A DNA stretch of 64,000 nucleotides from Heterodontus francisci (taxonomy: Eukaryota). Position numbers and translations under genes: made by a program. Below are positions 4,919 to 58,279 of this stretch, one piece after another. The first letter of the stretch is position 1. Every line of letters starts with the position of its first letter. The notes below the pieces were generated by a model that worked only from the letters and a program-made list of their open reading frames with translations, did no database searches and had not been told where the DNA came from. The DNA lies in the NCBI RefSeq assembly GCF_036365525.1, contig NC_090412.1, positions 23,578,459 through 23,642,458 of the forward strand. Direction: 5' to 3'.

Positions 4919-5890
4919 GTTGCTCTGGTTGCTCTGCTGTGATAGCTGCTCAAAGCCCTCCAGCCTCTCAATCTTTGTTGTGGCTCCAGTGAAGAAAGTA
5001 ACTGCCTGTTTCCAGCTTCCATCTGCTTGCTGTAGTCTCTTCTCAGACCATTCAATCAAAGTTGAGCGATGCACAGGCCCAAGGCCCACTTTAGGAGGCC
5101 TATTGGAGCTGCCACCAAGCCATTGCAGTGTCCCTTCCATATTGGTTACCATTTGGTTATGATACAAATTACTGTGGAACTCCGAGAAATGTCGGTGCAC
5201 TGTAAAGTGGCCAAGACTTTGCATCGCAGGTCTTCACCCTTTATCTTCACTCTGCACCAGGGAATAATTACCATCCAGACTCTCAGCATAGAGGAATTGA
5301 CCCTTTTAAAACAACACACACTTTATAACCAATACACGACTTCATTTGATATGAGAGAATACAAACCATCAGGTTAGACAGGAAGTTATAGTGCTGAAAC
5401 ACATCTATTGTCCTAACTCATTTACAAAATGATGCACAGGTGGCTGGAATCTTGTTTCAAGTTGTTTCTTTCTTGAACATTAACCCTTTCTAGTTTTGAT
5501 TTGAGTCACTCAGCAGGTTTAATGCAAGTGCTGTCATTGGAATGGACAACAACATAAAGGCTAGCAGCTGTAAATAGATGAATAAAACAAAAAAACTGAT
5601 GTCCTGTTCACTCAACCAGCAATTCTACCTCCTTCTGCATAAGAGTGACAGCAGCGTCAGAGGGCTTTTCCCAACAGGAATGTTCCTGAAGGTCTAGGAG
5701 ATTAGCGATTCCACCTCCTGGCCCTGTGGCCTCCCTCGCATAATGCCATCATCTAGATGATTACAAAAGAGCTCACTCTCTGAACATGAAACCTATTTGC
5801 AACCATCAGTATTGCAATATTCAAGTCATTTCCCAGGCGCGTGTTACAGATCCATCACTTTAAGGGAGTGCCATCAATATTTGACCTGAA

Positions 5891-6578
5891 AAAGTCACTG
5901 AAAGCTAACATGCAGGTGCAGCAAGCAATTAAGAAGGCTAATGGTATGTTAGCCTTTATCACAAGAGGATTTAAGTACAGGAGTAGTGAAGTCTTGCTTC
6001 CATTGTATAGAACCTTGGTTAGACCGCACCTGGAGTACTGTATACAGTTTTGGTCTCCTTACCTTAGGAAGGATATTATTGCCATAGAGGGAGTGCAACG
6101 AAGTTTCAGCAGACTTGTTCCTGGGATGGCGGGACTGTCCTATGAAGAGAGATTGGGGAAACTGGGCCTGTATTCTCTAGAGTTTTGAAGAATGAGAGGT
6201 GATCTCATTGAAACCTACAAAATACTTCAAGGGATAGACAGGGTAGATGCAGCTAAGATGTTTCCCCTGGCTGGGGAGTCTAGAACCAGGGGACACAATT
6301 TTAAAATAAGGGGGAAGCCACTTAGGACCGAGATGAGGAGAAATTTCTTTACTCAGAGGGCTGTGAATCTTTGGAATTCTCTACTCCAGAGGGTTGTGGA
6401 AGCTCAGTCATTGAGTATGTTTGAAGTAGAAGTTGACAGATTTCTAAATACCAATGATATAAAAAGATATGAGGATAGTGTGGGGAAAAGGCATTGAAGT
6501 GGATGATCAGCAATGATCGTATTGAATGGTGGAGCAGGCTCGATGGGCTGAATGGCCTACTCCTGCTTCTGTGTTCCT
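5891..6578 (+). mobile_element. CR1 LINE 3' fragment
   Basis: AIKKANGMLAFI, LEYCIQFWSP, RGDLIETYKI, NFFTQR.VNLWNSL; CR1 3' hairpin/tail. Confidence 0.93.
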
Positions 6579-8045: not shown

Positions 8046-9355
8046 CCATGGAACCATAGAAGAGTTACAGCACAGAAAGAGGCCATTCAGCCCATCATGT
8101 CCGCACCGGCTGAAAAAGCTAGTCGCTCAATCTAATCCCACCTTCCAGCACCTGGTCCGTAGCCTTGCAGATTACAGTAATTCAGGTGCAGGTCCAGGTA
8201 TCTTTTAAATGAGTTGAGGGTTCCACCACCGATCCGGGCAGCGAATTCCAGACACCCACCACCCTCTGGGTGAAAACGTTTTTCCTCATGTCCCCTCTAA
8301 TCCTTCTACCAATCACCTTAAATCTGTGTCCCCTGATAATTGACCTCTCCGCTAAGGGAAACTGTTTCTTCCTGACTACCCTATCTGGGCCCCTCATAAT
8401 TTTGTACACCTCAATTAAGTCACCCCTCAGCCTCCTCTGTTCTAAGGAAAACAACCCTAGCCTATTCAATCTTTCCTCATAGCTGCAACTTTCAAGCCTT
8501 GGTAACACTCTTGTAAATCTCCTCTGTACTGTCTCCAGAGCAATTATGTCTTCCTGTAATGTGGTGACCAGAACTGTACACAATACTCCAGCTGTGGCCT
8601 CACCAATGTTTGATACAGTTCCAGCATTATTACCCTGCTTTTGTATTTTACACCTCAGCCAATAAAAGAAAGCATTCCATATGCATTCTTCATTCTATCT
8701 ACCTGTCCTGCCACCTTCAGGGACCTGTGGACATGCACTCCAAGGTCTCTCACTTCCTCTACCCCTCTCAATATCCTCCCGTTTATTGTGTATTTCCTCG
8801 CTTTATTTGCTCTCCCCAAATGCATTACCTCACACTTCTCCAGATTGAATTCCATTTGCCACTTTTCCGCCCACTCAACCAAACCATTGATATCATTCTG
8901 GCATTTACGGCTATCCTCTTCACACGGCCCATTTTTGTGTCATCTGCAAATTTCCCAATCATACTTCCAACATTTAAGTCCAAATCATTAATATATACCA
9001 CAAACAACAAAGGACCCAACACTGAGCCCTGTGGAAAGCCACTGGAAACCGCTTTCCATTCGCAAAAACATCTGTCGAACATTATTACCCTTTGTTTCCT
9101 GCCACTGGACCAATTTTGGATCCAACCTGCCATATTCCCCTGTATCCCATGGGCTTTTACTTTTCTGACCAGTCTGCCATGTGGGACCTTGTCAAATGCC
9201 TTACTAAAATCCATGTAGACAACCTCCACTGCACTACCCTCATCAATTCTCCTTGTTATTTCCTCAAAAAATTCAATCAAGATAGTAAGACATGACCTTC
9301 CCTTAACAAATCCATGCTGACTATCCCTGATTAATTTGTGCCTTTCTAAGTGACA
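8046..9355 (-). mobile_element. CR1 LINE 3' part with RT fragments
   Basis: YMDFSKAFDKVPH, PQGSVLGPLLF, FADDTK, RGDLIEVYKI in frameshifted minus-strand ORFs. Confidence 0.93.
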
Positions 9356-9721
9356 GTAACAAACACCAAGTGTACTGGTAAAACAGACTCATGTAATGTT
9401 GTCCACTGGATTGGCACACCTGTTCCTCATTCCAGCATATATTCCCTTTCCATCCACTTACAGGAGAGGACTGGTGGCAGTGGCTGCAGTAACTTAAAGG
9501 AGTAGGCCAGCACTAATTTCCATCAAAGTTGGATCTAAAAACGATGATAGTTCTGGGCACCATACTCCCATATTGCCCAGGCTCTTCAGTTGGGAATGTT
9601 GGCAAAGGAGGATCTTACTTTTGGCACCAAGGGAAGGAGGCCCATGATGGGCATAGCACAGGCCCAGTAGTAGCAGTGAGTGCCTCCTTCAGTAACAGTT
9701 ACTTCCCAGGTTAGGAGGATT

Positions 9722-11829: not shown

Positions 11830-13760
11830 TCAGTTGTTACTCAGTGGTAGCCTTCTTGCTGCTGAGACAGAAGGCTCTAGAGACTGCAACACAAAATCTA
11901 GTCTGACACTCTGGTGCAGTACTGAGGGAGAACAACAGTATCAGAGATGCCGTCTTTCAGATGAGATGTTAAATCAAGGCCCTGTCTGCGCTCACAGGTG
12001 GACGCAAAAGATCCCACGGCATTTATTTTTTAAAAAGAAAAGCTGGGGAGTTTTTCCCAGAGTCCTGTCCAATATTTATCCCTCAACCAACAGCACTAAT
12101 AAACAGATTATCAGCTCATTTATTTCATCACCATTAGGAACCTTGCTGTGTGCAAATTGGATGTTGTGTTTCTGATTTCAGAACAGTCAGAGGACTGGAG
12201 GACTGGAGAACAGCTAATGTAGTCCGACTATTTAAGAAAGGTTGTAGAGCTAAGCCAGGGAACTACAGACCAGTGAGTCTCACGTCAGTGGTAGGGAAAC
12301 TATTGGAGAAAATTCTGAAGGAGAGAATCTATCTCCACTTGGAGAGGCAAAATTTGATTAGGAATAGTCAGCATGGCTTTGTCAGAGGGAGGTCATGCCT
12401 AACAACTTTGATTGCATTTCTTGAGCATGTGACCAGGCGTGTAGATGAGGGTAGTGCAGTTGATGTAGTTTACATGGATTTCAACAAAGCCTTTGACAAG
12501 GTCCCACATGGGAGACTTATCAAGAAAGCAAATGCACATGGGATACAAGGTAACTTAATAAGGTGGATTCAAAATTGACTTGGCTGTAGGAGACAGAGAG
12601 TGATGACAGACGGCTGTTTTAGTGACTGGAAGACAGTGTCCAGTGGCGTACCACAGGGATCTGTGCTGGGTCCCCTATTGTTTGTCATTTATATAAATGA
12701 CATAGATGACTATGTGGGGGGTAGTATCAGTAAGTTCACGAATGACACAAAGATTGGCCAAGTGGTTAACAGTGAGGTTGAGTGTCTCGAGTTACAGGAT
12801 GATCTAGACTGGATGGTCAAATGGGCAGAAAAGTGGCAGATGGAATTTAACGCTGAAAAGTGTGAGGTGATACACTTTAGAAGGAGTAATGTGACACGAA
12901 AGTATTCAATGAATGGCCTGACACTGGAAAGTTCCGAGGAACAAAGGGACCTTGGCGTGTTTGTCCATAGATCTCTGAAGGCAGAAGGGCAGGTTAATAG
13001 GGTGGTGAAAAAGGCATATAGGACACTTGCCTTTATCAATCGAGGCATAGATTACAAAAGCAGGGAGGTCATGTTGGAGTTGTATGGAACTTTGGTAAGG
13101 CCACAGCTGGAGTACTGTGTGCAATTCTGGTCGCCACATTATAGGAAGAATGTGATTGCACTGGAGGGGGTGCAGAGGCGATTCACCAGGATGTTGCCTG
13201 GGATGGAATATTTAAGGTATGAAGAGAGGTTGGATAGGCTTGGGTTGTTTTCGCTGGAGCAGAGAAGACTGAGGGGTGATCTGATCGAGGTGTACAAGAT
13301 TATGAGGGGCATGGACAGGGTGGATAGGGAGCAGCTGTTCCCCTTAATTGAAGGGTCAGTTACGAGGGGACACAAGTTAATGGTGAGGGGCAGGAGGTTT
13401 AAGGGGGATTTGAGGAAGAACCTTTTTACCCAGAGGGTGGTAATGGTCTGGAATGCCCTGCCTGGGAGGGTGGTAGAGGCAGGTTGCCTCACATCTTTTA
13501 AAAAGTACCTGGATGAGCACTTGGCACATCATAACATTCAAGGCTATGGGCCAAGTGCTGGCAAATGGGATTAGGGAGCCAGGTCAGGTGTCTTTAATGC
13601 ATTGGTGCAGACTCGATGGGCCGAAGGGCCTCTTTTGCACTGTATTATTCTGTGATTCTGTATTCTTATTCTGTGAACAAGTCGACACACTTCAAAAGTA
13701 TTCAATTGGCTGGAAACTGCTTTGGGAAGCCCCAAGGTTGTGAAAAGTGATTAAAAAATA
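11830..13760 (+). mobile_element. DeuSINE (SacSINE1-like) split by a CR1 insertion
   Basis: Deu-type core TGCCGTCTTTCAGATGAGATGTTAAA...AAAAGATCCCACGGCA at 11830-12190; tail CACTTCAAAAGTA...TGCTTTGGGA resumes near 13680. Confidence 0.75.
12192..13672 (+). mobile_element. CR1 LINE, well-preserved 5'-truncated RT region
   Basis: ORFs 12150-12578 and 12600-13574 are in the same frame, separated by one TGA at a W codon; NYRPVSLTS, PQGSVLGP; tail (ATTCTGTG)n. Confidence 0.95.
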
Positions 13761-14547: not shown

Positions 14548-15402
14548 AGGAAACTCAGTGATATAATATTACAGGAAGCTTGGTGTGGTAATATAGGAGG
14601 AAGCTTGGTAATGTAATATCAAATGTAATAATGTAATATTCGGTGCTGTAATATTACAGGAAGCTCGGTGCTGTATGTAGGAGGAAACTTGGTGCTGTAA
14701 TATCAGAGGAATCTTGGTGCTGTAATATCAGGGGAAGATCAGTGATGTAATATAGGAGGCAGCTTGATGCTGTGATATTACAGGAAGCTCAGTGCTAAAT
14801 ATCAGAGCAAGCTCGATTCTGTAATATAGGGGGAATTTTGCTGCTGTAATGTCAGGGGAAGCTTGGTGCTGTAATATAAGAGGAAGTTTAGTGCTGTAAT
14901 ATCAGAAGAAGCTCGGTACTGTAATATCAGAGTAGGTTTAATGATGCATTATATGAACAAGCTAGTACTGTAATATAGGGGGAAACTCGGTGTTGTAATA
15001 TATGAGCAAGCTTGGTGCTGTAACGTAGGAGGAATCTTGGTGCAGTAATATCAGAGGAAGCTTGGTGCTGTAATATCATAGGATCATAGGAAATAGGAGC
15101 AGGGGTAGGCCATTCGGCCCGCCAAGCCTGCTCCACCATTCAAAAAGATCATAGCTGACCATCTACTTCAACACCATTTTTCCCCACTATCCCAATATCC
15201 TTTGATGTCATTAGTATCCAGAAACCTATCAATTTCTGTCTTGGACTTGCTCATTAATTGACCTTCCACTGCCCTCTATATAGGAGGAAATTCAGTATGA
15301 ACAAGCTCAATGTTGTAATATTGGAGGAAGCCTGGTGCTGTAATATCAGAGGAAGCTTGGTATTGTAATATGAGTGGAATATTAGGGGAAGCTTGGTTCT
15401 GT
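14548..15402. repeat. ~25-bp minisatellite
   Basis: Unit approx TGCTGTAATATCAGAGGAAGCTTGG, about 25 diverged copies, interrupted by a CR1 tail at ~15077-15272. Confidence 0.85.
15077..15272 (-). mobile_element. CR1 3'-end fragment inside the minisatellite
   Basis: Plus strand CATAGGAAATAGGAGCAGGGGTAGGCCATTCGGCCC... is the reverse complement of the CR1 3' terminus. Confidence 0.8.
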
Positions 15403-15520: not shown

Positions 15521-15702
15521 CTAGGATGAGTCTCCACAGAGTAGGCACATGTTTTTTTTGTTGAATTTTCCAATGATGGTCTTCTTGAGTTCATCCTTGA
15601 AGGTCGATATCATGATTTTCTCCTGGGTGTAATTGTACAATACGTCATGGCACCTCTCGGGGAAGTAGGCTGATGGCATCCCACTTACTCTCCTGGAACT
15701 CG
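15521..15702 (-). CDS. Secreted Cys-rich protein exon 6 (terminal)
   Basis: atttcgcag|CG...TAG; (A)SSRRVSGMPSAYFPERCHDVLYNYTQEKIMISTFKDELKKTIIGKFNKKNMCLLCGDSS*. Confidence 0.85.
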
Positions 15703-16686
15703 CTGCGAAATGAACAAATAGAGGATAAGGAAGTTCAATGATACAGTGCTCTGAGGGTCAGTTGTTCAGCTGGTTGGACCTCCAAAGACAGTCAGTCGAG
15801 CTTTGCAGTGGGTTAGACACCGGCTCATTGGCTCTTAGGCCTGGACTGGACTGATGGAAATCAAACATTTGGCTACAAGAGCTCGCTATGATATGAATTT
15901 GGACAGTTTTGATCCACTTCCTAACAGGCAAGGATCTACAGCACAAAAATTGTCCCAATTTGGCTTTAAAATGCCAATCTGACTCACAGAGAGACATGTG
16001 AAGATAACTTATTGGTCCATACCCTTGAGACTAAGGCACTTTGGTTAAAGTAGGAACTTTACTCCTTAGCTAACCCATTTTTAACTAAAACTGGTCAATC
16101 TTAATCTAACATACAAGTTTTATTCCAAGCACAAAGACCAGCAACACTTTCAACATGGACTAGGGACTCCTTTACTTCCTGACCTGAGGGCCTCAATTCT
16201 CCCTCGCTTGAGGGCTTCAAATCTCCCTCACCTGAGAGCACCTCAAAACTCCCTCACCTGAGGGCCTTGGCAAACTTGGGTTTGCCACGGGACTGCCACG
16301 GTTCAACAGAGCGGTCACACCACCTTCTTAAGGGTAACTAGGGATGGGCAATAAATGCCAGCCTTGCCAGTGATTCTCACATCCTGAGAATGAATTTAAA
16401 AAAAACATTATGTCTCTGGGCTTCATTTTATAGTCTAATTGATTGTGAGAAGTTGGTGGAGTGGGGATTTGGGGCTGTTCAGTTCCCCTGTTCTTGTTTT
16501 CCAGCACTATGAAGAGGATCTAGTCTACAGTAGTTAAGGGAAGGGCCATTTAGCAACTGGACACTGGGCCATCATTGAAATCACTCTGCAATTCAGCGTG
16601 TCACTGAGAATTACTCTCGAGCAACATTCTGCCTGGGACTGCCACCCTCCACAGAAAGTTAGCAACACTGGACTAAAAGGATGTAC

Positions 16687-16801
16687 CTGTGCATACGGCC
16701 AACCTACGCCCTCCAATGTACTGCGTGTCCCAGCGATAATTTGTGTTTTCCCCACACTCCTCGTACAGTCGACTTATTCTCAAGAAAGCAAAGTCATAAC
16801 C
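16687..16801 (-). CDS. Secreted Cys-rich protein exon 5
   Basis: gaacag|GGT...ACAG|gtacat; GYDFAFLRISRLYEECGENTNYRWDTQYIGGRRLAVCT(A), resembling the second half of a sushi domain (GY..C...W...C). Confidence 0.88.
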
Positions 16802-17104
16802 CTGTTCAAGCATAGTGAACAAATGTCAGTACAGATTTTACCATCACCTTGGGAAGAAATATCTTTTACTGCAATGTGTTCAAATACTCCTGAGGGCTCC
16901 TAGAGTCTGCAACCCTGCACCTGGGTGACTCAATGTCAATCGGGGAGATGGAGCGTAATGCCCAGAGTCAACTCATTCAACAGACAATAACATCAGCATA
17001 GGGAAATCTCAAAGCTTAACTCTGATCAGGAGTCTTTTTATACAGCAGGGCTTAGATCAGGGTTTATTAGATTTCACAGGAACTTATTTCAGTAAACTCA
17101 CTGG

Positions 17105-17320
17105 ATGTGTGTGTGTGTATTCATGAACGTCTATGTATATTTGTGTCTGTGTGTGCATGTATTGGTATGCATGACTGTATATGTGCCTGTATATGTGTGT
17201 GCTGTGTGTATGCACCTCTGTATAAGTGCATGGACATGTGTCTGTACATATCTGTGTGTTTGTGTGTCTATGTGTTTGTGTGTTATCTATGTGCGTGAAT
17301 GTGTCTCTGTCCACGTGTCT
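17105..17320. repeat. Degenerate (TG)n microsatellite
   Basis: TG/TA alternating low-complexity tract. Confidence 0.85.
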
Positions 17321-17329
17321 TTGACTGTC

Positions 17330-17870
17330 ATAAGCCCGCTGACATTACTCAGCTCCCCCTCGCTACCTCTTCGCTCAACTCTGTGACCATCTCCATGCTG
17401 TCAGGCTGCCTGTCCAACATTAAATTATGAATAAATTAAAAACTTCATCCAACTGAGCAACTGGGAGACTGAAACCACTGTCTTTGGCCCCTGCCATAAA
17501 CACTGCTCTTTTGACTCCGAATCCATCTGTCTCTCCCACCACACAAAGAGCCAGATCCAAAACAGGCAAAACCTTGGCGCCCTGTTTGGCCCAGAGCTGA
17601 GCTTCAAACCTCACATTGGATCCATCACCAAGGCCGCTCATCTCCACCTCTGTCCCTCTTCTGACAACATCCTTGGCTATGCTTTAGTAACTTTCATACT
17701 CTACTCCAATGGTCCCCCATCCCTCACCTTGCATAAGCTTGACCAATATCCATCACTCATCTCCTGCCTCGCACTCAAGCCCCACTCACTCCCCACTGAC
17801 CTTCATTGGCTTCCTGCTGCCCCTACACATTCAACTTAAAACCTTCACCCTCACTTTAATATGTTTCTCA
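17330..17870 (+). mobile_element. L2 LINE fragment (degraded)
   Basis: Resembles the L2 ORF2 C-terminus (CL.DI..WM..NFLQLN..KTE..VFGP pattern); homologous to the 47-48 kb copy. Confidence 0.6.
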
Positions 17871-18988
17871 CTCCAGCGATGCACTCAGCAGTAGAATACT
17901 CACACTGGTCACAAATTCACTGCATTAGTATTCTCATTCCAATAGTGTAACTCACTCGTGTATGCAGTCAGTCATTGCAGAGATTAAACTTCGTAACTCG
18001 CTGCCTTCTCTCTATCTGTGTTGTCCTCGACTCAACATTCAACCCTACCCATCCTCTTGCTGAGAATTCCACTCGCATTCAGGTTCTCTATACAAGTAGC
18101 CTCTATCAATCTCTACCGCTCGATCTCAGGCTGCTCAGAGGGACAAGGAAAATCTTATTTCTTTCAGTTTTCTCATAGACACAATGCTTTCACTCCTCTC
18201 ACAATCCAAGCAACAGCTCTCCCCTTTTAGACCGTCTTTGTTGATCAACTGTCTCCACTCATCTCAGACGAAACTTTCACATATCCTCTTTTGTGTTGGT
18301 TTTTATCCTGTCATGTTAAACACCATCTTTCAACTGAACAAGTTGTGATTCCCTACAAAGCCCAAATCGATTCAAGACATGACTACTGCCTGTATTTCTC
18401 AGAAGTAAATAGCCCTAATTCTGAAAGCCAGTCCTAAGATCCCCAGGACTAGGCGTCATTCTCCTCCTCTGCACCGTCCCCAGATTCTCAACTTTACCAT
18501 GTGCAGAGACCATAAACAAAAAGAAAGAACTTCCATTTACATAGTGCCTTTCACAACCCCAGGACTTCCCACGTGTTTTACTGGCAACAAAATGATTTTG
18601 AAGTGTATGTATTGTTATAATTTAGGAAACTGGTGACAGTAGTTTAAGTGTGGATGTACGAGGGCCTTAAGTAACCCAAGTATAGCACTCTTGGTTGAGC
18701 AATGCTCCCTAAAAGACTATTTGCTTTCCCTACATATTGCTGGTGAATCTTTAGTGCACCTTTTACCCCAGTATCTTGATCCATTACTTTTAATATGTGC
18801 ACCATTGTAGAGGGTCACAAATGAAGAATGGTCTCCTTGTGTGAGCTACCAGGAGAGTCACTGGCACCTGTTACCTGTGAAACTGTCACTGGGTCACTGG
18901 GTGCAGGAGACATGAGGGTTGGAGAAGACTGAAAACATTTTTAAGACTAATAAATAGAGTGGTGTCGTGAGCCGCGCTGAGTCCGCAC

Positions 18989-19101
18989 CTTGTTACAAAG
19001 CGGCTTGCAATAGCGAGTCTTATCAACAGTGATACATATCAGGCCTCCGTTAGCAGGGATCAAGGGCAAACTGCAGTTCTTGGGATTAACATTCTGACAA
19101 G
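18989..19101 (-). CDS. Secreted Cys-rich protein exon 4
   Basis: ttttttaaag|CT...AAG|gtgcgg; (A)CQNVNPKNCSLPLIPANGGLICITVDKTRYCKPLCNK, resembling the first half of a sushi domain (C..P..P.NG...C). Confidence 0.88.
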
Positions 19102-19159
19102 CTTTAAAAAAGTACAAAGGTTGAGAGAAAATCAGACATTCACAAACATAAAAGGAAAG

Positions 19160-19360
19160 AAACAGTTTGCATTTCTGTAGCTTCTGCCCTGACATCAGGA
19201 TATCATAACGCATTTTACAACCAATGAAATACTTTGGAAATGCAGATACTGTTGTAATGTAGGAAACACAGCAGCCAATTTGTGCACAGCAAGCTCCCAC
19301 AAACAGCAATGCAATAATGACCAGATAATCTGTTTTAATGATGTTCATTGAGGGATAAGT
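19160..19360 (-). mobile_element. DeuSINE 3' fragment
   Basis: GCAGCCAATTTGTGCACAGCAAGCTCCCACAAACAGCAATG is the reverse complement of the shared SINE body. Confidence 0.75.
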
Positions 19361-19613
19361 GTTGTCTCGGTCCGATACAAAATCGGTTCTGAGAGATATA
19401 TGTAAATATATCTACCTTGAGATAGAGTTTCTGCGAGGTAACACTGGCAGTTCAAGTGCAGTTTGCTCAAAATCGGACAAACAAGGGCAAAAGATCAAGG
19501 AACTTCAAGTACAAATTACACCTAGCGTAAATCAAGTTCTGCGATCTTTTGCACTGGTTTAAAAAACATCACGCTGGATGCCAGCCCTACCGACAAAACT
19601 GGCCCTACCCATG

Positions 19614-19943
19614 GGGTGGCACAGTGGCGCAGTAGTTAGCACCGCAGCCTCACAGCTCCACAGACCTGGGGGCAGTTCTGGGTACTACCTGTGTGGAGTT
19701 TGCAAGGTCTCCCTGTTTCTGCCGGGTGCTCTGGTTTCCTCCCACAGCCAAAGACTTACAGGTTGATAGGTAAATTGGCCATTGTAAATTGCCCCTAGTG
19801 TAGGTAGGTGGTAGGAGAATGGTGGGAATGTGGTAGGGAATATGGGATTAATGTAGGATTAGTATAAATGGGTGGTTGTTGGTCAGCACAGACTCGGTGG
19901 GCCGAAGGGCCTGTTTCAGTGCTGTATCTCTCTATGACTCTCT
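19614..19943 (+). mobile_element. HE1-like V-SINE (tRNA head, CR1-type tail)
   Basis: GGGTGGCACAGTGGCGCAGTAGTTAGCACCG head; V-domain GGGTGCTCTGGTTTCCTCCCACA; tail GGGCCGAAGGGCCTGTTTCAGTGCTGTATCTCT. Confidence 0.85.
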
Positions 19944-21108
19944 AAATTAATCGCCATGGTGATTTCCATTGACTGCGCCATTTGCAGTCCTCCGAGGAGG
20001 CTCTTAAAATTAAGCATTTTTTAAGGTGCAAGGACACCAATAGGAACCCTTTGAAAGCTTTTAATTTGTTTTAGTTTACTGGGGAACTGAAACTGTACAC
20101 CAATAAAACTACTAAATGCTTCTGTATGGTTTTTTAAAGTCATTTTCAAATATTTAAAATCAGGTTACTCATAGGATGTGGACAAGACACTGCGATTACC
20201 AGTGCCTATATTTTGTGATGACTCCATTTTCACCTGTATTAATAAAGCTGCACCAAGTTACCACTTATGAATATATCAATGAATATTTTCAATGTTAAAA
20301 AAAGATTAAAAATTTCCTTCTAAGATACTCGGTCGTGTAGGTTCATTGAAGATTGTACATTCGGCTATCTGCAGTTGAATTTGAGTGGAAACTTCAGCAC
20401 AAAATTCAATGCAGAAAATGTGCCCAATTTTGAGCCGCAATTTGCGCCCATGATAGAAATTCTATCCCATTCTCTTTGGCGTCAGCCATTCCCATAAGCA
20501 GACCACATATCCCTTATGTTCTGGAGTTGTCTCACACTGTCCTAGATCTATTTACAGTATAGCATAACCCAGTAGGGTGTGTCAATGTGTCTTTTTGACA
20601 CACAGGAGCCACCAGTTCCCAGACTGATTTCTGCAGTTGGTTGAAGATCTCAAACAGGTCTACTTACAGCTATACTATTATATACTGTTACTTAGGCTCA
20701 GAGAAGAGGAAAAGTTTTGTGTGTTCAGCAGAATCTGCATCACCAACTGATTGCACGAACAATCAGATTCCCAGTTGAAACCGACTGAGTAACATGGCAG
20801 AGGAGCACAGCCTGGGCTGTACCATCCGTACAGAGATAGCTAGCTCAGGCCAGATTATACTGCTAAAGTCACTGTTAGTGAGGGAGCCACAGAACCAGTT
20901 TCTGATCGAAATTCAGGCAGTGACCATTCCTGTAGCGGTCAGCTCTTGTACTGTTCCAGTTCAGGTCTGGCCATTTCTCCTCTTGTATACTGTGCAGATG
21001 GACAATATATGTCGCATGTAGTCACTGTCCTTGCAGTAATGCTTGTTACTTTACAGCAGGGCTGTTCCAGGGTTTGGTTGAGTGAAGTGTAATGAGGAGC
21101 TGCCACCA

Positions 21109-21370
21109 TGTAATAAGTTCTTTTTATGCTGTCTGATGCAACATAAATGAGATGTGTGGAGTCCAGTTGGCTGAAGATCTCAAACAGGTTTATTTACAGC
21201 TAAACTATTATATACTGTACAGAGGTAACTGTTTGCAGAACCTTACTCTGGGTGTCACAGCTGCAGAGTGCCTCTGGCTTTGAGTCACATGACTGCATCC
21301 TGGTACTTGGCTCATTAGCATACTAGGATCTTAAAGGGACATCACTTTTAAAGGCAATCACACAATAACA
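21109..21370 (-). mobile_element. Short solo LTR (~260 bp)
   Basis: TGT...ACA termini; homologous in reverse to 36520-36781; partial third copy near 20630-20690. Confidence 0.7.
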
Positions 21371-21626
21371 AGTACCATAGGGCTTTGCCAAACACACAAA
21401 AAACTCAGTCCGTACATGATCCTAGAAGATATTGGATGTTCTTATTTAGAATTTATCAATGAGGTAACAGCACAAAGGCTAGTCCATCCTGAGCCTCCAG
21501 AATGACTGAATTCAACGGGACAAATCAAAACATAGGAGGTGTAAGTGCACATAACCTGAGGGAGAGATTACCAGGGATCAGACACCGAGACTAAAAGGGG
21601 CTTCAGTAGATTGAAGAGGTTCATAC

Positions 21627-21741
21627 CTTTCAGAAGGACGGATTTCAACCGGTCAGCCGCATTTTGCAACAATCCAAGAAGGTTACTGCGTTTCTCACCC
21701 TCCAAATGCTCTATAAGATGGTCAGAACAGCTGGCTAAATC
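21627..21741 (-). CDS. Secreted Cys-rich protein exon 3
   Basis: ttttgtcttcag|GAT...AAAG|gtatga; DLASCSDHLIEHLEGEKRSNLLGLLQNAADRLKSVLLK(A), amphipathic-helix-like. Confidence 0.82.
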
Positions 21742-21809
21742 CTGAAGACAAAAGGAAAAAAATGCAGAAGTGGGCATTGAACTTCCCATTTATTTGGATG
21801 TACCTTGGG

Positions 21810-21815
21810 TCTCCT

Positions 21816-21865
<50 letters not shown>

Positions 21866-21871
21866 CCTCTC
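21810..21871. repeat. (TC)n microsatellite
   Basis: Direct TC run. Confidence 0.9.
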
Positions 21872-23234
21872 TAGTTCTTTAGGTATCAGAACTGTTGTGT
21901 GGATAATTGTACAACAGAGCTTTGGATGAGCTCAGGTTTATGGAAGATGGAAGGTGTAGGCTGAGCCAGAGAGTCTTACTTGGTCTTTAGAGGGTTTATA
22001 TGTTTGTCTAAGCTGCTCAGTTTGTCATTCTACAATATCTCCACATGACACTAGATACTAGTTGAATTGTGCATGGTGATTAAGGTAAACAAGCAGTGGG
22101 CATGTCAAGAATCCAACCTATAGCATTGGGGGATTGGGCCTGTTGGTATCTGTTACTCAGAACTGAGACCCATATCTTCCAAGTTCAGGGTTCTTAATGC
22201 TGTGGAATGGGATGGGAGGAGGTCAGTCAGCCCCTCAAACTGGTTCTGACATTCAGATCATTGCTGACCTCTATCTAAACTCTATCTACCAGCCTTGGTT
22301 CCATAACCCATAATACCCTCGCCTAACAAAAATCCATTAATCTTAGTTTTGAAATTTTCATTTCATCCCCCAGTCTCAAACACTTTTTGAGGGGAGAGTG
22401 GTCCAGATTTCCATTATTCTTTGTGTGAACAAGTGCTTCCAGACATCACCCCTGAATGGCCTAGTTCTAATTTTAAGATTCTGCCCCCATCCAGTGACTA
22501 TCACCATTCCTGACCCAGCTATTGTATGGTGCAGTACAGAGTAAAGCTGCCTCAACCCTGCTTCAACACTATAGCCTGATTTTAACTGGGAGCAGAAATC
22601 GGTCAGTCTGCAAGACAGATTGACATCCAGGCGATTTTAATTCACCTTCCTTCCATCTCCTACTGCTTGGCGTGTGGTGGAGGAAATTTGGGCGGCCAGA
22701 GATTGCTGGCTGGCACCAAGGGAATGGTTGCCGACAACAAGTTAAAGGGCTATTTGGAAGGCTCCGTGAGCAGGAATGGTGGCAGGAAGGGGCTGAGTGA
22801 AGGCTGGGGTAGGGGAGGCTTAACTTTCGATGTGGGGTCCGGAAGAGCACTCCTGCTGTTTGCCTGTTTTGTCCTCTCCAGACGCCATTCTCTTCACCTG
22901 GTGGAAAAGTCACATTGCTTCCCCTGCTCAGGCCGCTGTTAAAATTCCAATCAGGGCCCGATTATGCCATCAAACCCTGATCTGCATATGTAAAGAAGGG
23001 CCTCGCCAACTTCAGGTCTGTGACCTTGTTGCCTGCCGATTTTAACTGCCCACTTAGTTTCCACAAGCCCTAGGCTCAGAAGAGGCTCTTCACTGCACCA
23101 AGTTGGGCCGAGGTTGGCACCCACACCAGCCATCCCATGCTTGGCTGACTGTGAATACCAAATTCGTGTCATTTAGCTTTGTCTTTGGGCAGTTTCATGC
23201 TGTGGAACCTGGTTGGGGTTGGTCAAACTTATTT

Positions 23235-23655
23235 CATGTTTTATTCATTCTCAGGATATGGGCATCGCTGGCAATGCCAGCATTTATTGCCCATCCCTAA
23301 TTGCCTTTAAGAAGGTGGTGGTGAGCTGCCTTCTTGATCCACTGTGGTCCGTGTAGTGAAGGAACCCTCACAGAGCTGTTAGGTAGGGAGTTCCAGGATT
23401 TTGACCCAGCGGTGATTAAGGAACAGCGAGATAGTTCCAAGTCAGGATGGTGTGTGACTTGGAGGAGGTGTTGATGTTCCCATGAATTCTCCTTCTAGGT
23501 GGTAAAGGGCGCAGGATTGGGAAGTTCTCCTGAGGAAATCTTGGCATATTGTTGGAGTGAATCCTGTAGATAGTGAATAATGTAACACTGAGGGTGGAGG
23601 GAGTGGATGTTTAAACCAGTGGATGGGTTGCCAATTAAGTTGCTTTGTCCTGGCT
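23235..23655 (-). mobile_element. 3' fragment of second LINE family (CR1/jockey group)
   Basis: Homologous to 24460-25110 (CCCTAATTGCC...GAAGGTGGTGGTGAGC...GGGAGTTCCAGGATTTTGACCCAG). Confidence 0.7.
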
Positions 23656-23897
23656 GAAGAAGAGTTAGGGGCTGGATTTAAACCCTGATTTCTAGGTCGA
23701 AATACCAGTGTCTAAACTGCTCCACCGTTCTTGTCCATTTAATTTGTGGAGCCCTGAGGCTGTCTAGCACTACACACAGCCTCATGTTCCTATAACACAG
23801 TTCCTACTCTGAATTTCCAATATCTGACCAGTATTAGCTCTATATGTGACTGAGGGAGATAATCTTAACACTCATAGTGTGATGATGAAATTATTAC

Positions 23898-23980
23898 CTT
23901 TAAGTTGCTGCTAAAGTTCAGGTAGCTGTCAGTATCAAACACGGTCTGACAGGTCTCGGTCTCTTCGATTAAGTATATAC
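23898..23980 (-). CDS. Secreted Cys-rich protein exon 2
   Basis: ttttactttag|GT...AAG|gtaata; (G)IYLIEETETCQTVFDTDSYLNFSSNLK; phase 1->0 bridges exons 1 and 3 exactly. Confidence 0.75.
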
Positions 23981-24459
23981 CTAAAGTAAAAGATAATTTC
24001 ATCAAAACCCATAAATATATACTCAAAAAACATACTGATCCTGCTTCTGCAGTGTATATGGTATGTATCCCATGTAATCTATACTGTTTCCACCCTACAT
24101 AACATACTGCCTGCATCCTTTATGGTGTGTATGCCTTGCACTCTACATGATGAATGCCACAAACATCTTACTATTAATTCAAAGTCATTTTTTACTGGGA
24201 GTGATTTAGGTAATTCTAATAAAACAGAACTGGAGGATTTCCTTTGCACAATTTTGATTTGAATCAATGATAATTTGAATTAAATATCTTTGAATTAAGA
24301 GGAGTAGACTGTGTAATGTAAATCATAGAATCAACGAATGGTACAGCATAGAAGCACGCCATTTGGCCCATCCTTCCTGTACCAGCTCTTCAAATAGTCC
24401 CACTTCCCTGCTCCATGGACTGCAGCTCACCACCACCTTCTCAAGGGCAATTTTTTTTT

Positions 24460-25112
24460 ATTTGTTCATGGGATGTGGGCGTCGCTGGCTAGGAGAGCAT
24501 CCCTAATTGTCCTTGAGAAGGTGGTGGTGAGCCACCTTCTTAAACTGCTGCAGTCCTTGTGGTGTGGGTACACCCACAGTGCTGTTAGGAAGGGAGTTCC
24601 AGGATTTTGACCCAGTGACAGTGAAGGAACGGCGATATAGTTCCAAGTCAGGATAATGTGTGGCTTGAAGGGGAACTTGAAGGTGGTGCAGTTTCCATGC
24701 ATCTGCTGCCCTTGTCCTTCTAGGTGGTAGAGGTCGTGGGTTTGGAAGATGCTGTCGAAGGAGCCTTGGTGAGTTGCTACAGTGCATCTTGTAGATGGTA
24801 CACACTCTCGCCACTGTGCATCAGTGGTGAAGGGTTGTGAATGTTGAAGGTTGTGGATGGAGTGCTAAGCAAGCAGGCTGCTTTGTCCTGGATGGTGTCG
24901 AGCTTCCTGAGTGTGGCTGGTGCCGCACTCATCCAGACAAGTGGAGAGTATTCCATCACACTCCTGACTTGTGCCTTGTAGATGGTCGACAGGCTTTGGG
25001 GAGACAGGAGGTGAGTTACTTGCTGCAGAATTTCCAGCCTCTGACCTGCTCTTGTAGTGACAGTATTTATTTGGCTGGTCCAGTTCAGTTGCGGGTCAAT
25101 GGTAACCCATAA
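24460..25112 (-). mobile_element. Second LINE family 3' part (CR1/jockey group ORF2 C-terminus)
   Basis: VTID..LNWTSQI, IYKAQVRSVMEYSPLVW, LDTIQDKAA, KSWNSLP motifs. Confidence 0.8.
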
Positions 25113-25744
25113 GATGTTGACAGGGATGGGCAATAATGCTGGTCTTGCCAGTGATGCTCACATCCCAAAAAATGATTAACAGAAAAATGTGCTCATGGAG
25201 CTAAATTAATTCTTGGTCTAGCAATATTTCAAACTTAAAATGTTCAAAATCCCTCCATGGTCATGTCCCTCAACATCTGTGTAATCTCCTGCAGCCAGCA
25301 CAGGCAAAATGATCTCATTCAATGCTATAAGACTCTATGATTCTAACTGACTCTCTCCAGGAGTCATTACTTTTCCTTGGTCAAGCTTTGGAGATTTATT
25401 TACAGGCCCCACGCAGATGCGCACTAACTCTCAGATGGCTGAGTTGTGCTGAAGCTCAAGGGGGCTATAAACATCCCAGGAAGCTCTACCATTTCCCCAA
25501 ACCCCAAACAAGCCCCCTTCGACAGAGGAAAAAAGACAGACTTGCATTTTTATGGCACCTTTCACAACCTCAGGACATACCAAAGCACTTTACAGCCAAA
25601 GAAGTACTTTTGAAGTGTAGTCACTATTGAAAGGTAGAAAATGGTGAGTGGGGGTAAACAGATAATCCACAGGAATTTAAAGGGCCAAGCAAAACAGAAT
25701 GGAGACTCTGACTCATTCCCCATTCCCTTTATTCTTCCACCTAG

Positions 25745-26184
25745 GCTATGGAAGATGCAGGATCCCCAAGGACACATTGTACAGCGAGCTCGCCACTGGT
25801 ATCAGACCCAACGGCCGTCCATGTCTCCGCTTTAAAGATGTCTGCAAACGCGACATGAAGTCCTGTGACATTGATCACAAGTCGTGGGAGTCAGTTTCCA
25901 GCGATCGCCAGAGCTGGCGGGCAGCCATAAAGGCGGGGCTAAAGTGTGGCGATTCGAAGAGACTTAGCAGTTGGCAAGAAAAAAGACAGAAGCGCAAGGG
26001 GAGAGCCGACTGTGTAACAGCCCCGACAACCAATTTTATCTGCAGCACCTGTGGAAGAGTCTGTCACTCTAGAATTGGCCTTTATAGCCACTCCAGGCAC
26101 TGCTTCACAAACCACTGACCGCCTCCAGGCGCTTACCCATTGTCTCTCGAGACAAGGAGGCCAAAGAAGAAGAAGAAGAAGAAG
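25745..26184 (+). mobile_element. RTE-clade LINE 3' end
   Basis: RIPKDTLYSEL..G.RP.GRP.LRFKD.CKRDMK...DR..WR, C-terminal C2H2 finger (CSTCGRVCHSRIGLYSH), (GAA)n tail. Confidence 0.88.
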
Positions 26185-26459
26185 GCTATCCCACTCTCCT
26201 GCTCTCTCCTCATACCCTTTAAATTCTTTTTCAAGGAACTATCAAATTCCCTTTAAGATAGGTAGGGATTCTGCTTTAATGCTTAAAAGACTAGGATCTA
26301 CATACACCTAAGATTGCATCTCCTATTCTGGTCATTTTTAGGCCCTAACTTATTCGATTACCCAAGGTTTTAAATGACCCATTTTGACCCTTTCTCATGG
26401 ATCTTTTGAGCACACAGTTACTGTGCTGTTTGCAAGGACTCAGCTTAAATGTACTGTAC

Positions 26460-26520
26460 CTGGGATTAGAGTCCAGCTCACACCAATCAGAGCAAAAACT
26501 GTGAGCAGTGTGCGATCCAT
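26460..26520 (-). CDS. Secreted Cys-rich protein exon 1 (signal peptide)
   Basis: gacATGG Kozak-like start; MDRTLLTVFALIGVSWTLIP(G) hydrophobic leader; CCAG|gtacag phase-1 donor; TATA box upstream. Confidence 0.75.
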
Positions 26521-26575: not shown

Positions 26576-26650
26576 TTTATATTGCACAAATGGAAGGGGG
26601 AGAGAGACAAGCAAAGATTGCATTTGGTGATGGGACTGTTAATCATTAAA
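26576..26650 (-). promoter_or_regulatory. Putative proximal promoter: TATA box, C/EBP site, HNF1 site
   Basis: Minus-strand TATAAA at 26576-26581; ATTGCACAA (C/EBP-like) at 26581-26589; GTTAATCATTAA at 26638-26649, matching the HNF1 consensus GTTAATNATTAAC. Confidence 0.6.
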
Positions 26651-33093: not shown

Positions 33094-34890
33094 TGTAAGG
33101 AAAAGGTTAATTAGACTGACTCGAGTTCCTATTCATTCATCCTTATCATGTGGTAATGTTAGTTTCTACCATCAGTTTGTTTAGCCAGGACTATGTTCCA
33201 CTCTGAAGCAATGACCGCAGAACATTTGAAATGAGACTGACCCTTATGATTCCACATGTTTTAGTATCACGTAATCACTTGCTCAATAAGACAAGTTATA
33301 GATAACGACATATTGGTTCCTGAGTCTCAGGTAGGTGCAATCAATGACAAATGGGGGAAAGGATAACACCCCTGATCAAGAAAACCATGTAGATAAATAT
33401 TATCTTTTTAATGGAAAAGTTGTGAGCACTAATTGGTACAGAATCAAAGGCAGATTTATAATTATTAATTTCATTTGGCGGGACAATTCTATGTAACCAG
33501 AGAGAACTGTGCAAGGTGACAGAATCATTGAGTTAAAGTCATCATGTTAGCTTGACTGGAAAAAGGCTCGTTAATAAGGAAATCAGCTTAATAACTAAAG
33601 TTATTGATAAGGCATGGATCCAATTAGATACTGGGTCATATTCCTGAGAAGTTGGAAAACAAGTAGTTTACATCTTCACCCATGTCAATCAACAGAGACG
33701 TGTTGTAAAATTTCCCACAACAGTGTCTATACTTCAAAAGTACTTCATTGGCTGTGAAGTGCTTTGGGATGTCCTGAGGACGTGACAGGTGCTATATAAA
33801 TGCAAGTCTTTCTTTTTTCTATTAGTCACTACCCTGCAGATGTAAAACTATACACTTGTCTAAAACATAATCAGGTCTGGGTAACTTACCAGAGATAGAC
33901 ATTTTGATAAGGAATCTTTAATTCAGAAATCTATATAGATCTGACTGAATACTAAGTTCAGCACTGAGTCCCCAACCATCAGGTGTGATTGTAAGAACCC
34001 TTAGGAGTATTGACAGGCAGAGAGATATGGGCGTACAGGTCCACAGGTCACTGAAAGTGGCAACGCAGGTGGATAAGGTAGTCAAGAAGGCATACGGCAT
34101 GCTTGCCTTCATCGGTCGGGGCATAGAGTACAAAAATAGGCAAGTCATGCTGCAGCTGTACAGAACTTTAGTTAGGCCACACTTAGAATATTGCGTGCAA
34201 TTCTGGTTGCCACACTACCAGAAGGACGTGGAGGCTTTGGAGAGGATACAGAAGAGGTTTACCAGGATGTTGCCTGGTCTGGAGGGCATTAGCTATGAGG
34301 AGAGGTTGGATAAACTCGGATTGTTTTTACTGGAATGACGGAGGTGGAGGGGTGACATGATAGACATGATACAAAGTTATAAGCGGCATGGACAGAGTGG
34401 ATAGTCAGAAGCTTTTTCCCAGGGTGGAAGAGTCAGTTACTAGGGGACATAGGTTTAAGGTGAGAGGGGCAAAGTTTAGAGGGGATGTGCGAGGCAAGTT
34501 CTTTACACAGAGGGTGGTGAGTGCCTGGAACTTGTTGCCGGGGGAGGTGGTGGAAGCAGGTACCATAGAGACGTTTAAGAGACATCTTGACAAATACATG
34601 AATAGGATGGGAATAGAGGGATACGGACCCCGGAAGTGCAGAAGGTGTTAGTTTAGACAGGCATCAAGATCGGCGCAGGCTTGGAGGGCTGAATGGCCTG
34701 TTCCTGCACTGTACTGTTCTTTGTTCTTGTTCTTTGTTCTTTGTAAATACTATTTTTTGAGTGTGTACCTAACCACTACTGCATACACTGCCTAATAAAT
34801 TTATGAATCTTGACCTCAACATTTGAGGAACTTTATTGATTTGGAGGGATAGATAGAACACCTAATCATAATAAAAAATGCATCCTCACA
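33094..34890 (+). mobile_element. Probable solo LTR carrying nested SINE and CR1 fragments
   Basis: TGTAAGGA...TCCTCACA imperfect inverted termini; interrupts a CR1 3' end (GCACAAACAC | ATGGGCCGAATGGCC); TATATA near 33932 and AATAAA near 34795; no clear TSD. Confidence 0.55.
33988..34742 (+). mobile_element. CR1 LINE 3' fragment
   Basis: VVKKAYGMLAFI, LEYCVQFW, FFTQRVVSAWN; (GTTCTTT)n tail. Confidence 0.93.
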
Positions 34891-46572: not shown

Positions 46573-46675
46573 TTAGTAGCTGAGTTTCTTCACCACTTCC
46601 CAAGGGAATTCACTCCTGCCAAAATGGCCGTAGCAAGCTGTTTTTTGGTAGATTGCTTTCTTCAAGTTTAGGTCC
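46573..46675 (-). CDS. MAT1A: MAT1A exon 9 (terminal coding part)
   Basis: ttctag|G GAC...TAC TAA; (R)[33 protein letters not shown]; 103 bp; absent from the ORF track. Confidence 0.93.
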
Positions 46676-47027
46676 CTAGAAAAGGAAACATATTTTGTCT
46701 GATACAAAATCACAAAATCACAAAGGACAACACATAACATGCAGAGAGATGAGGGTGGTCATCTTGATTCAGCCACGCATTCCGATATTAAAACTCTCCC
46801 AACCAAGGCATTCAACTATTGCTTAAAGATTCCAGGCTTTTATTCTCCAATACTCTTTTTGGAAACCCATTCTGAGAGTTAATTACTTGTGTGCAGAAGA
46901 ATTTCCTGAGATCAGTGCTATTTGTCTTTAGCTTGTTTGACCCTGTGTCTTCTTTCTCCACTGTCGTGGTGTGGTTTTAAAGCAGTGTGCCAAATTTACC
47001 TGTTCCATACTGTATGTTACAACAACA

Positions 47028-50446: not shown

Positions 50447-50580
50447 CTGACGATCATGCCGGGTCGAAGGTCAAAGTTCTTTCTCACAATTTCCATCAAT
50501 GCCCTGTCGCCCATTTGTGCGGTTCCATATGAGAAAATGGAGATGGAGAGTGGCTCAGCAACACCAATGGCATACGCAAC
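50447..50580 (-). CDS. MAT1A: MAT1A exon 8
   Basis: ttacag|GTT...AG|gtaaaa; [44 protein letters not shown](R); 134 bp. Confidence 0.95.
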
Positions 50581-51642: not shown

Positions 51643-51724
51643 CTAAACAATCCAAACACAAGACACACGATGATTCCTCCAACATCACAAGGAGAGGCTA
51701 CGTAGGTAACTGAGGGGCAACCTG

Positions 51725-58235: not shown

Positions 58236-58279
58236 CACTATTTTGAAAACTGTGCACAAACTCTGGAATTAGAAAGAAA

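Follow-up and report, generated by a model that had tools for sequence, protein, structure and literature searches.

We report here that a six-exon gene on the reverse strand of the window, the whole 64,000-nt stretch of horn shark (Heterodontus francisci) DNA that was analysed, is the orthologue of zebrafish si:ch1073-126c3.2 (gene 555816), trout LOC110502557 (XP_021436350) and chicken LOC423629 (XP_421513.1), and that si:ch1073-126c3.2 is a single-copy, pan-vertebrate liver gene. The shark product is best explained as a glycosylated plasma protein of about 23 kDa, and the best reading of its role, held tentatively, is that of an acute-phase protein of innate defence that is moderately induced and works by binding, not as an enzyme. 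The gene itself is no discovery since it is already annotated: the first-pass annotation had called it hidden, but its 222-aa product is identical to RefSeq entry XP_067876449.1, horn shark si:ch1073-126c3.2. What is added here is that three plasma or liver matches in zebrafish, trout and chicken, separately named and each listed as uncharacterised, are one orthologous family, and that this family, in which the paper flagging it saw no domain, can be given a predicted fold and an ancestry, namely a CCP (sushi) module with an alpha/beta tail shared with tunicate and invertebrate proteins.

The spliced frame measures 669 nt and encodes 222 aa with one terminal stop and 12 cysteines. The five introns are all GT-AG, have lengths of 2479, 2156, 2525, 2187 and 984 nt, and lie in phases 1, 0, 1, 0 and 1. 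The features of the locus, in window coordinates, are as follows.

46573..46674, reverse strand (same strand as the gene, at a distance of about 20 kb): MAT1A-like gene upstream, its last coding exon
26638..26650, no strand assigned: candidate HNF1-like palindrome that agrees with the consensus at 12 of 13 positions; the TATA box follows about 60 bp downstream
26576..26589, reverse strand: C/EBP-like 9-mer (26589-26581) running into the TATAAA box (26581-26576)
26460..26520, reverse strand: coding part of exon 1, for the predicted signal peptide (residues 1-21), supported by hydropathy, a GT donor and a splice joint in runs X2 and X3
23898..23980, reverse strand: exon 2; residues 21-48, a helical and variable stretch of the N-terminal region that holds C31 and sequon N42
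21627..21741, reverse strand: exon 3; residues 49-87, helical region, C53
18989..19101, reverse strand: exon 4; residues 87-124, first half of the CCP-like module, additional hairpin cysteine pair C109/C118
16687..16801, reverse strand: exon 5; residues 125-163, second half of the CCP-like module, best-conserved loops DFxF-RxxR-LYExC and WxxQYxGG
15521..15702, reverse strand: coding part of exon 6 with the stop codon; residues 163-222 form the alpha/beta tail, comprising YF, C180, a long helix, the final strand, C215 and C218
14501..15520, reverse strand: 3' UTR of about 1 kb, AATAAA at 14531 and 14518

The exon chain, predicted at first from the letters alone, was borne out by contigs from sequencing runs, of which X1, X2 and X4 come from the same sample and whose RNA nature is in all four cases a guess and not on record. 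Contigs of run X2 lack all five introns at their exact lengths, those of run X3, from a different organism and study, lack four of five exactly with the fifth offset by one mismatch, and run X1 contained two of the five spliced joints. Run X4 is the one run of four with no joints and with exon bins devoid of cover. Nothing was found in favour of the idea that the six exons are a chance or mis-spliced reading, or a pseudogene; it is refuted by exact spliced joints in two organisms and by full-length, intact orthologues throughout the vertebrates, and we give it practically no credence. A genome search, together with the 414 kb flanking the gene, gave no second copy. The placement downstream of MAT1A was also upheld, as the upstream exon (46576-46674) scores 53.6-54.9 bits with MAT isoform 1 vs 45-47.5 bits with isoform 2. 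In mammals a collectin cluster is neighbouring; a crude motif scan of the 414 kb gave neither a collagen motif nor a convincing C-type-lectin motif, and no adjacent collectin cluster was seen.

Database searches identified 42 other proteins matching the shark protein over its full length at E <= 4e-29, and Atlas clusters of the si:ch1073-126c3.2 family scored 0.97-0.98. Orthologues are present in lampreys, hagfish, cartilaginous and bony fish, amphibians, turtles, one crocodilian (the gharial) and many birds, with local identities of 39-48% to the bony-fish, salamander, turtle, crocodilian and bird members. The family name suggested in the first-pass annotation was right, and the family extends beyond fish; the suggestion that mammals have no counterpart agrees with our searches, in which none of 113 named matches was mammalian or from a squamate. 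All members represent the same gene, about 220 aa long with a shared cysteine scaffold, and no difference of substance separates the shark protein from them, certain orthologues having been automatically named "Sushi domain-containing protein". A 6092-aa protein (P0094) was discarded as a relative, the match being a spurious one to repeats. The open literature searched contains no functional study of the family and assigns it neither a domain nor a structure. A trout paper of 2020 had already drawn attention to it as a plasma protein that responds to immune challenge, lacks a mammalian member and is uncharacterised, with "no known conserved domains" (PMC7579410).

The hydrophobic leader, 12 cysteines and three sequons (N42, N95 and N186) reported previously were all found, and strongly hydrophobic 19-residue windows are confined to the leader (best 1.87; at most 1.05 beyond residue 25), from which the signal peptide would be cleaved after G21. 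Mean column conservation is 0.35 for residues 23-87, and 0.63 for exon 4 residues vs 0.75 for exon 5 residues. C122, C140, W148 and C161 are invariant (56/56) and C96 is kept in 55/56, with disulfides C96-C140 and C122-C161 predicted from the fold match. In the tail C218 is near-invariant (55/56) and C215 occurs in 39/56, so that a conserved CxxC of the thioredoxin-like redox type was not found. Since C218 is near-invariant while C215 comes and goes with C88 (both in 36, neither in 13, discordant in 4), the two most likely sit in separate structural disulfides, the predicted pairs being C88-C215 and C180-C218; co-occurrence alone cannot fix the pairings, because C53 likewise tracks C88 and C215 and the cysteine losses are concentrated in amphibians and cyclostomes. 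The earlier proposal of a CxxC-ended C-terminal domain therefore falls: the CxxC is not a conserved unit, and alignments to distant relatives indicate that the C-terminal part is not a free-standing domain and travels with the CCP as one ancient module. An RxxR motif adjoining aromatic residues is present in 143 of 149 proteins; as a furin site it was rejected, R-x-K/R-R occurring in 0/149.

In the predicted model residues 96-161 fold like a divergent CCP/sushi module, as had been proposed. The isolated module gave a best VIA-align Z of 4.9 (rmsd 2.0, 59 aligned), the top 30 rows all being chains which we take to be CCP-bearing, and the best Foldseek matches were CCPs of beta-2-glycoprotein I and E-selectin (prob 0.96-0.98, E 0.05-0.08); these fold scores are modest, with every Z below 5 and no Foldseek E below 0.001. 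Like the modules of beta-2-glycoprotein I, selectins, factor H, DAF and C1r/C1s/MASP it has four cysteines and a tryptophan (C96, C122, C140, W148, C161) and is flanked on both sides by phase-1 introns, and 55-68 residues of the model superpose at 2.0-3.5 A. Unlike them, it has an additional hairpin cysteine pair and two long conserved loop insertions, and the protein carries a single module with a fused alpha/beta tail; unlike the regulators of complement activation (factor H, C4BP, CR1, DAF, MCP), it has no tandem CCP array. Pfam Sushi (PF00084) matched 0/43 members at E <= 1, no relevant Pfam family was found with any of the six exons, the full-length protein or the 43 members as query, and searches of PDB sequences with the protein and its profile gave nothing below E 0.3. 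A pLDDT of 92.5 was obtained for the model of the sawshark orthologue. The N-terminal region has pLDDT below 50 through residue 35 and helices at 37-51 and 63-89 with pLDDT 55-80; generic helices swamped the wide search when the full-length model was the query (best Z 6.5, residues 1-90), and no fold can be assigned to this region.

The tail, which the model joins tightly to the CCP-like module, weakly resembles the N-terminal half of a SEA domain. With the SEA fragment of MUC1 (6bsc_A) 52/57 residues align at 2.1 A to the model's hairpin, helix and last strand, at a Z of only 2.9, which places it 46th and on a par with the PurS and PIH1 folds. The complete four-stranded ferredoxin-like SEA fold was not found; its second half is absent, as the shark protein stops after one long helix and one strand. 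A likeness of the module to the thyroglobulin flap found no support: thyroglobulin matched just the ephrin-receptor-like part of invertebrate relatives, gave no match from the module and its continuation, and is absent among the listed fold rows.

Outside the vertebrates the two-part module ends tunicate proteins with FN1 repeats and lies internally in invertebrate SCUBE/SVEP1-like proteins. Phallusia CAB3246632.1 (labelled "fibronectin", 432 aa) and unnamed tunicate relatives carry the whole of it at the extreme C-terminus, stopping 1-5 residues past the aligned part (hhalign 99.3%, E 1.6e-20, 133 columns); they differ in having FN1-like repeats in place of the helical N-terminal region, and identity is just 28%. 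Lingula XP_013402131.1 and two further EGF-sushi-ephrin-receptor-like proteins (P0124, P0129) share the module over 122 columns (hhalign 98.4%, E 5.9e-15), and Atlas gave a TM of 0.65 for residues 93-218 against a mollusc EGF/HYR/Sushi cluster. In these SCUBE/SVEP1-like proteins, by contrast, the chain continues for about 250-280 residues, and in two of the three long examples a polybasic furin-type stretch follows directly on the module's last Cys-Gly. The labelling of human SVEP1 in PMC13722417 includes a furin site and a SEA module.

Liver expression, plasma presence and induction have been published for the orthologues only, not for the shark. For the nurse shark, a plasma study (PMC9207270) names contigs Seq9619 and Seq18791 as ones with homologues in fish and amphibians, which makes them candidate members of the family. 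Zebrafish plasma contains 5.2 ug/mL in females and 15.2 ug/mL in males, and in male liver the transcript ranks 22 at 7304 TPM (PMC4829857, PMC3547925). A three-fold male bias and a hormone response are also reported in zebrafish. Five peptides of the orthologue were reported from chicken plasma (PMC6205363). After LPS the chicken protein changes by +0.33 (FDR 1.9e-3), a small effect, and in necrotic enteritis by a logFC of 2.22 (adj. p 0.015), while a DIA row of the enteritis study lists +1.45 with raw values that are lower in the diseased birds, a sign mismatch shared by APOA4 (PMC12000508). In trout, liver expression rises by log2 1.35 after Aeromonas (PMC6167799), and plasma levels at day 7 of immunisation exceeded those of day 0 in 6/6 fish (PMC7579410), reaching about 2.9-fold by day 42 by our own arithmetic on the published values; that table covers six immunised fish only, so handling or time effects are possible. 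Across two lineages that are distant from each other, the family thus responds with a rise to LPS, enteritis, immunisation and infection by bacteria. On these data a real, secreted plasma protein is almost certain, in line with the plasma or innate-immune character proposed at first, and induction in inflammation across vertebrates is probable; the best reading is that the orthologues behave as a moderate positive acute-phase protein made in the liver. A conserved, apparently non-mammalian plasma defence protein is thereby made directly testable in zebrafish or chicken, and may be of use for monitoring inflammation in poultry and in fish farming.

Action in complement or innate recognition is the role we favour, with slightly less than even confidence. 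The protein would lack a catalytic role and work by binding, the two extended, highly conserved CCP loops being where a conserved partner would dock. The likeliest partner is a component of complement (C3/C4 fragments) or else, within that system, the surface of a microbe or of damaged self, and the variable N-terminal helices may form a stalk or help the protein to oligomerise. An analogy is offered by the factor-H-related proteins, which are small, soluble CCP proteins of the complement system. Support comes from the clustering of the trout plasma orthologue with C3, C6, factor H and C1q-like proteins (PMC7579410), and the HNF1-like site at the promoter counts for the wider reading of a liver-made plasma protein. 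Against it, the LPS effect is small, the fold scores are modest and Pfam Sushi matches no member, co-induction with complement is common to many liver proteins, the closest multidomain relatives (FN1, EGF, ephrin-receptor-like) look like matrix or cell-surface proteins and not complement regulators, and the literature searched reports no ligand or activity for the family. Regulators of complement usually depend on a tandem array of three or four CCPs; the shark protein has one. Only speculatively can the parts be joined into an overlooked, ancient vertebrate acute-phase defence protein, retained in lineages as far apart as lampreys and birds but lost in mammals and perhaps also in squamates, built on an undescribed chordate-wide module of CCP and half-SEA-like tail; it would be the free plasma equivalent of a furin-cut SCUBE/SVEP1-like piece, its open sheet edge completed by a second copy or by the target, making a new soluble complement- or pathogen-binding adaptor.

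Other roles were weighed against the same data. A scavenger like beta-2-glycoprotein I or a lipid-associated carrier, with the FxFL-RxxR loop binding anionic phospholipid, LPS or heparin-like polyanions and the helices lying on lipoprotein particles, is unlikely: beta-2-glycoprotein I heads the Foldseek list, Sushi_2 clusters appear among the Atlas feature matches (0.77-0.79, where scores below 0.9 are leads only), RxxR stands beside aromatic residues and the plasma level is in the ug/mL range, but net charge is 0 over residues 125-162 and only +4 over 88-162, the helical hydrophobic moments are modest (0.28-0.43, no control), and APOA1, APOA2 and APOA4 fall in the chicken LPS table while the orthologue rises. 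Less probable still is a hepatokine, in which the single CCP holds a ligand or receptor as in IL-15 receptor alpha or SVEP1 and immune induction is secondary. Single-CCP cytokine binders are among the fold matches (IL-15Ra, Z 3.5), one SVEP1 CCP binds TIE1 (PMC13722417), the module is common to SCUBE/SVEP1-like proteins, and the male bias and hormone response of zebrafish would fit; for a hormone, however, both the plasma concentration of 5-15 ug/mL and a place among the top 25 liver transcripts are high, and no receptor evidence supports this reading. Least probable of the three is a clotting or wound-matrix accessory protein that would bind a coagulation factor or fibrin(ogen), for which the CCPs of factor XIII-B provide a precedent. 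The FN1 repeats of the closest non-vertebrate relatives belong to a module type that binds fibrin in vertebrates, and fibrinogen chains rise alongside the orthologue after LPS in chicken, but factor XIII A and B fall in the same table and the vertebrate protein itself has no FN1 repeats.

As regards the promoter, the HNF1-like palindrome was spotted by eye ahead of testing; it is the sole match in the window, and 14 of 100 shuffles match somewhere in the window. No STAT3-type site lies within 3 kb upstream of the gene, which counts against the favoured reading. The C/EBP-like 9-mer is as frequent as expected by chance (two matches vs 1.57), and its position alone is suggestive of a candidate site. 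At the other end of the gene, contigs of runs X2 and X3 both end at about 14501, which as contig ends gives a weak hint of the poly(A) site.

Six minus-strand exons, proposed in the first-pass annotation to encode a secreted protein, were borne out at the following positions, given here together with a TATA box:

26581, TATA box upstream of exon 1
26520-26460, minus strand, exon 1 (coding part)
23980-23898, minus strand, exon 2
21741-21627, minus strand, exon 3
19101-18989, minus strand, exon 4
16801-16687, minus strand, exon 5
15702-15521, minus strand, exon 6 (coding part)

All five introns are bounded by GT-AG (phases 1,0,1,0,1), and the spliced frame encodes 222 aa with 12 cysteines, three sequons and a single, N-terminal hydrophobic stretch. 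Among contigs from sequencing runs, those of X2 lack every one of the five introns at its exact length. Those of X3, which comes from a different organism and study and carries substitutions, skip four exactly and the fifth with an offset of one mismatch. Two joints were found in X1 and none in X4; X1, X2 and X4 represent one sample, and the RNA label of the runs is a guess of the tool. Contigs of X2 and X3 end near 14501, shortly beyond AATAAA motifs at 14531 and 14518. An HNF1-like site, the sole one in the window, lies about 60 bp upstream of the TATA box, and 14 of 100 shuffles contain one anywhere. A C/EBP-like 9-mer runs into the TATA box and occurs at chance level, and the motif scan found no STAT3-type site near the promoter. 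The 3' UTR carries a degenerate tandem repeat (14550-15400, unit about 25 nt); 25 nt are missing from an X2 contig at 15324 within this stretch, possibly a repeat-number allele.

The gene had been described as hidden, and this did not hold. Exon 6 as the sole query retrieved one protein at 100% identity, RefSeq XP_067876449.1 ("uncharacterized protein si:ch1073-126c3.2", Heterodontus francisci), which equals the spliced product at 222 of 222 positions. This entry may be based on the same genome as the window, and so it refutes the word hidden yet is not independent proof of the gene. A genome search gave five matches, all of them the window's own exons. Gene and family are already on record, and one published paper has singled the family out as an uncharacterised, immune-responsive one that mammals lack. 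The earlier interpretation was otherwise largely right. None of the literature reached by our searches examines the family's function, assigns it a domain or unites the zebrafish, trout and chicken names. The gene find itself is ordinary; its worth lies in a testable orphan for comparative immunology.

The full-length structural model has pLDDT below 50 through residue 35, helices of middling confidence at 37-51 and 63-89, and blocks at pLDDT 80-95 across residues 81-210. The naturally short sawshark orthologue P0010 (69% identical) was modelled at pLDDT 92.5, and the best 30 rows of its VIA-align search were all CCP-bearing chains (top Z 4.9, rmsd 2.0, 59 residues). Foldseek concurs, with E never below 0.05. 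The divergent CCP module recognised at first pass is therefore upheld by predicted fold at modest scores; Pfam Sushi matches none of 43 members, and some orthologues carry the automatic name "Sushi domain-containing". Conservation is highest in exon 5 (0.75 versus 0.35 for residues 23-87), where it is concentrated in two loop insertions that ordinary CCPs lack. An RxxR motif is retained in 143 of 149 proteins, none of the 149 having the R-x-K/R-R form. Predicted disulfide pairs are C96-C140, C122-C161, C109-C118, C180-C218, C88-C215 and C31-C53. Of 150 proteins, 120 could be scored for C88 and C215: 80 carry the two cysteines, 33 have neither and seven have just one of them. These counts are not independent, and C53 tracks the same pair. 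The analysis turned up neither a catalytic fold nor a catalytic motif in the protein.

A profile search of 1.84 billion representatives gave 115 matches, and the best non-vertebrate ones span the CCP and the alpha/beta tail (residues 163-222) jointly. They include a Phallusia FN1-repeat protein (E 3.3e-12) and two unnamed relatives, in all of which the module is C-terminal, and EGF/sushi/ephrin-receptor-like proteins, Lingula XP_013402131.1 being one. Profile-profile comparison gave 99.3% over 133 columns for the tunicate FN1-repeat set and 98.4% over 122 columns for an invertebrate SCUBE/SVEP1-like set; as these sets were drawn from the profile's own matches, the values demonstrate continuity of match and not independent homology. 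Independently, the Atlas gave a TM of 0.65 between a mollusc EGF/HYR/Sushi cluster and residues 93-218. In a 71-row tree five invertebrate modules stand apart from those of vertebrates and tunicates with full support and long branches, the branching at the base of the chordate group not being settled. Two of three long relatives have a polybasic stretch directly at the point where the vertebrate protein ends. A MUC1 fragment, the N-terminal part of its SEA domain, aligned over 52 of 57 residues (2.1 A, Z just 2.9), and human SVEP1 is labelled with a SEA module and furin site (PMC13722417); descent of the tail from half a SEA domain is therefore no more than a lead. The FN1-repeat proteins P0099, P0107, P0114 and P0151 form a small family with the module at the end. 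Its Phallusia member, labelled "fibronectin", has 432 aa and no FN3 match; the true Ciona fibronectin has 3698 aa (PMC5006582), so the Phallusia protein is something else and looks mis-named and undescribed.

Members extend from lampreys and hagfish through fishes, amphibians, turtles and a gharial to birds. Cartilaginous fish, teleosts, amphibians and hagfish account for the 43 proteins that a single-sequence search returned; lampreys, chimaera, bichir, salamanders and passerine birds were reached through cluster look-ups. BLAST in Table S7 of PMC7579410 gave none for mammals or reptiles. A tetrapod profile matched 175 proteins, the best 120 comprising 113 named and seven unnamed; the 113 named matches listed include 38 birds, four turtles and one gharial, and no mammal or squamate. 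This agrees with the first-pass view that there is no mammalian counterpart, an absence that is unproven given the 55 other matches and the unnamed full-length members P0057 and P0223, of unplaced lineage, whose best named match is to turtles at about 40% identity. The teleost-like P0045 has its N-terminal helical unit in two copies, and P0033, named "Fibroblast growth factor receptor 2" at NCBI, is mostly of this family in sequence and probably a chimeric model.

The chicken family member we take to be LOC423629. Its 221-aa sequence (PMC6205363 supplement) shows about 23 differences, counted by eye, from the guineafowl member P0226. Five of its peptides were reported in chicken plasma, with a rise after LPS (+0.33, FDR 1.9e-3; PMC6205363), and necrotic enteritis is accompanied by a rise as well (logFC 2.22, adj. 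p 0.015; PMC12000508). A second table of the latter paper lists it at +1.45 with raw values lower in sick birds; wherever rows of its Table S2 were checked, raw intensities contradict the tabulated fold changes. The sign disagrees in the same way for APOA4, which makes these columns look unreliable. Zebrafish si:ch1073-126c3.2, assigned to the family by NCBI name and mass and not by sequence, is present in plasma at 5.2 ug/mL in females and 15.2 ug/mL in males, a 3.12-fold male bias (PMC4829857), and its transcript ranks 22 in male liver at 7304 TPM (PMC3547925). Trout XP_021436350 was placed in the family via Table S7 of PMC7579410, whose matches are the database proteins P0050, P0163 and the P0017 locus. 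It rises in liver after Aeromonas (log2 1.35, FDR cut-off 0.1; PMC6167799). In a plasma table of immunised fish only, all six fish had higher levels by day 7, and the increase reached about 2.9-fold at day 42 (our arithmetic on supplement rows); the protein falls into one cluster with C3, C6 and factor H (PMC7579410). The evidence for the plasma and innate-immune character suggested at first pass comes from these orthologues and would apply to the shark protein by extension. Section 24 of PMC7579410 interchanges the taxa of its two uncharacterised proteins, as comparison with that paper's Table S7 shows. PMC9207270 mentions nurse shark plasma proteins that are uncharacterised and have homologues in fish and amphibians.

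We tentatively favour a soluble binder within the liver's acute-phase output, in which the conserved loops of the CCP would hold on to a partner, itself conserved, in complement or on microbial or damaged surfaces, with the N-terminal helices as stalk or oligomeriser. Its proposed mode of action would be that of small soluble CCP proteins; having one module only, it falls outside the regulators of complement activation. That it scavenges lipid or polyanion in the manner of beta-2-glycoprotein I seems unlikely, a role as hepatokine or growth-factor binder quite unlikely, and one as clotting accessory protein improbable.

Some 20 kb separate this gene from the end of its upstream neighbour, which best matches MAT isoform 1 and has MAT1A-like exons within 46573-59330 of the window:

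~59286, minus strand, MAT1A-like exon
~53900, minus strand, MAT1A-like exon
53271-53450, minus strand, MAT1A-like exon
51540-51640, minus strand, MAT1A-like exon
46576-46674, minus strand, MAT1A-like exon

An earlier such exon lies outside, at window-equivalent 75282. A tandem repeat in a MAT1A intron (56159-57549) has plus-strand open frames of 414 and 452 codons, which are probably non-coding. Broken reading frames at 304-1804, 5790-6494, 8185-9388, 12138-13571, 24469-25157 and 33949-34648 resemble LINE (CR1-type) reverse-transcriptase fragments, and in several intron bins contig depth is very high owing to repeats.
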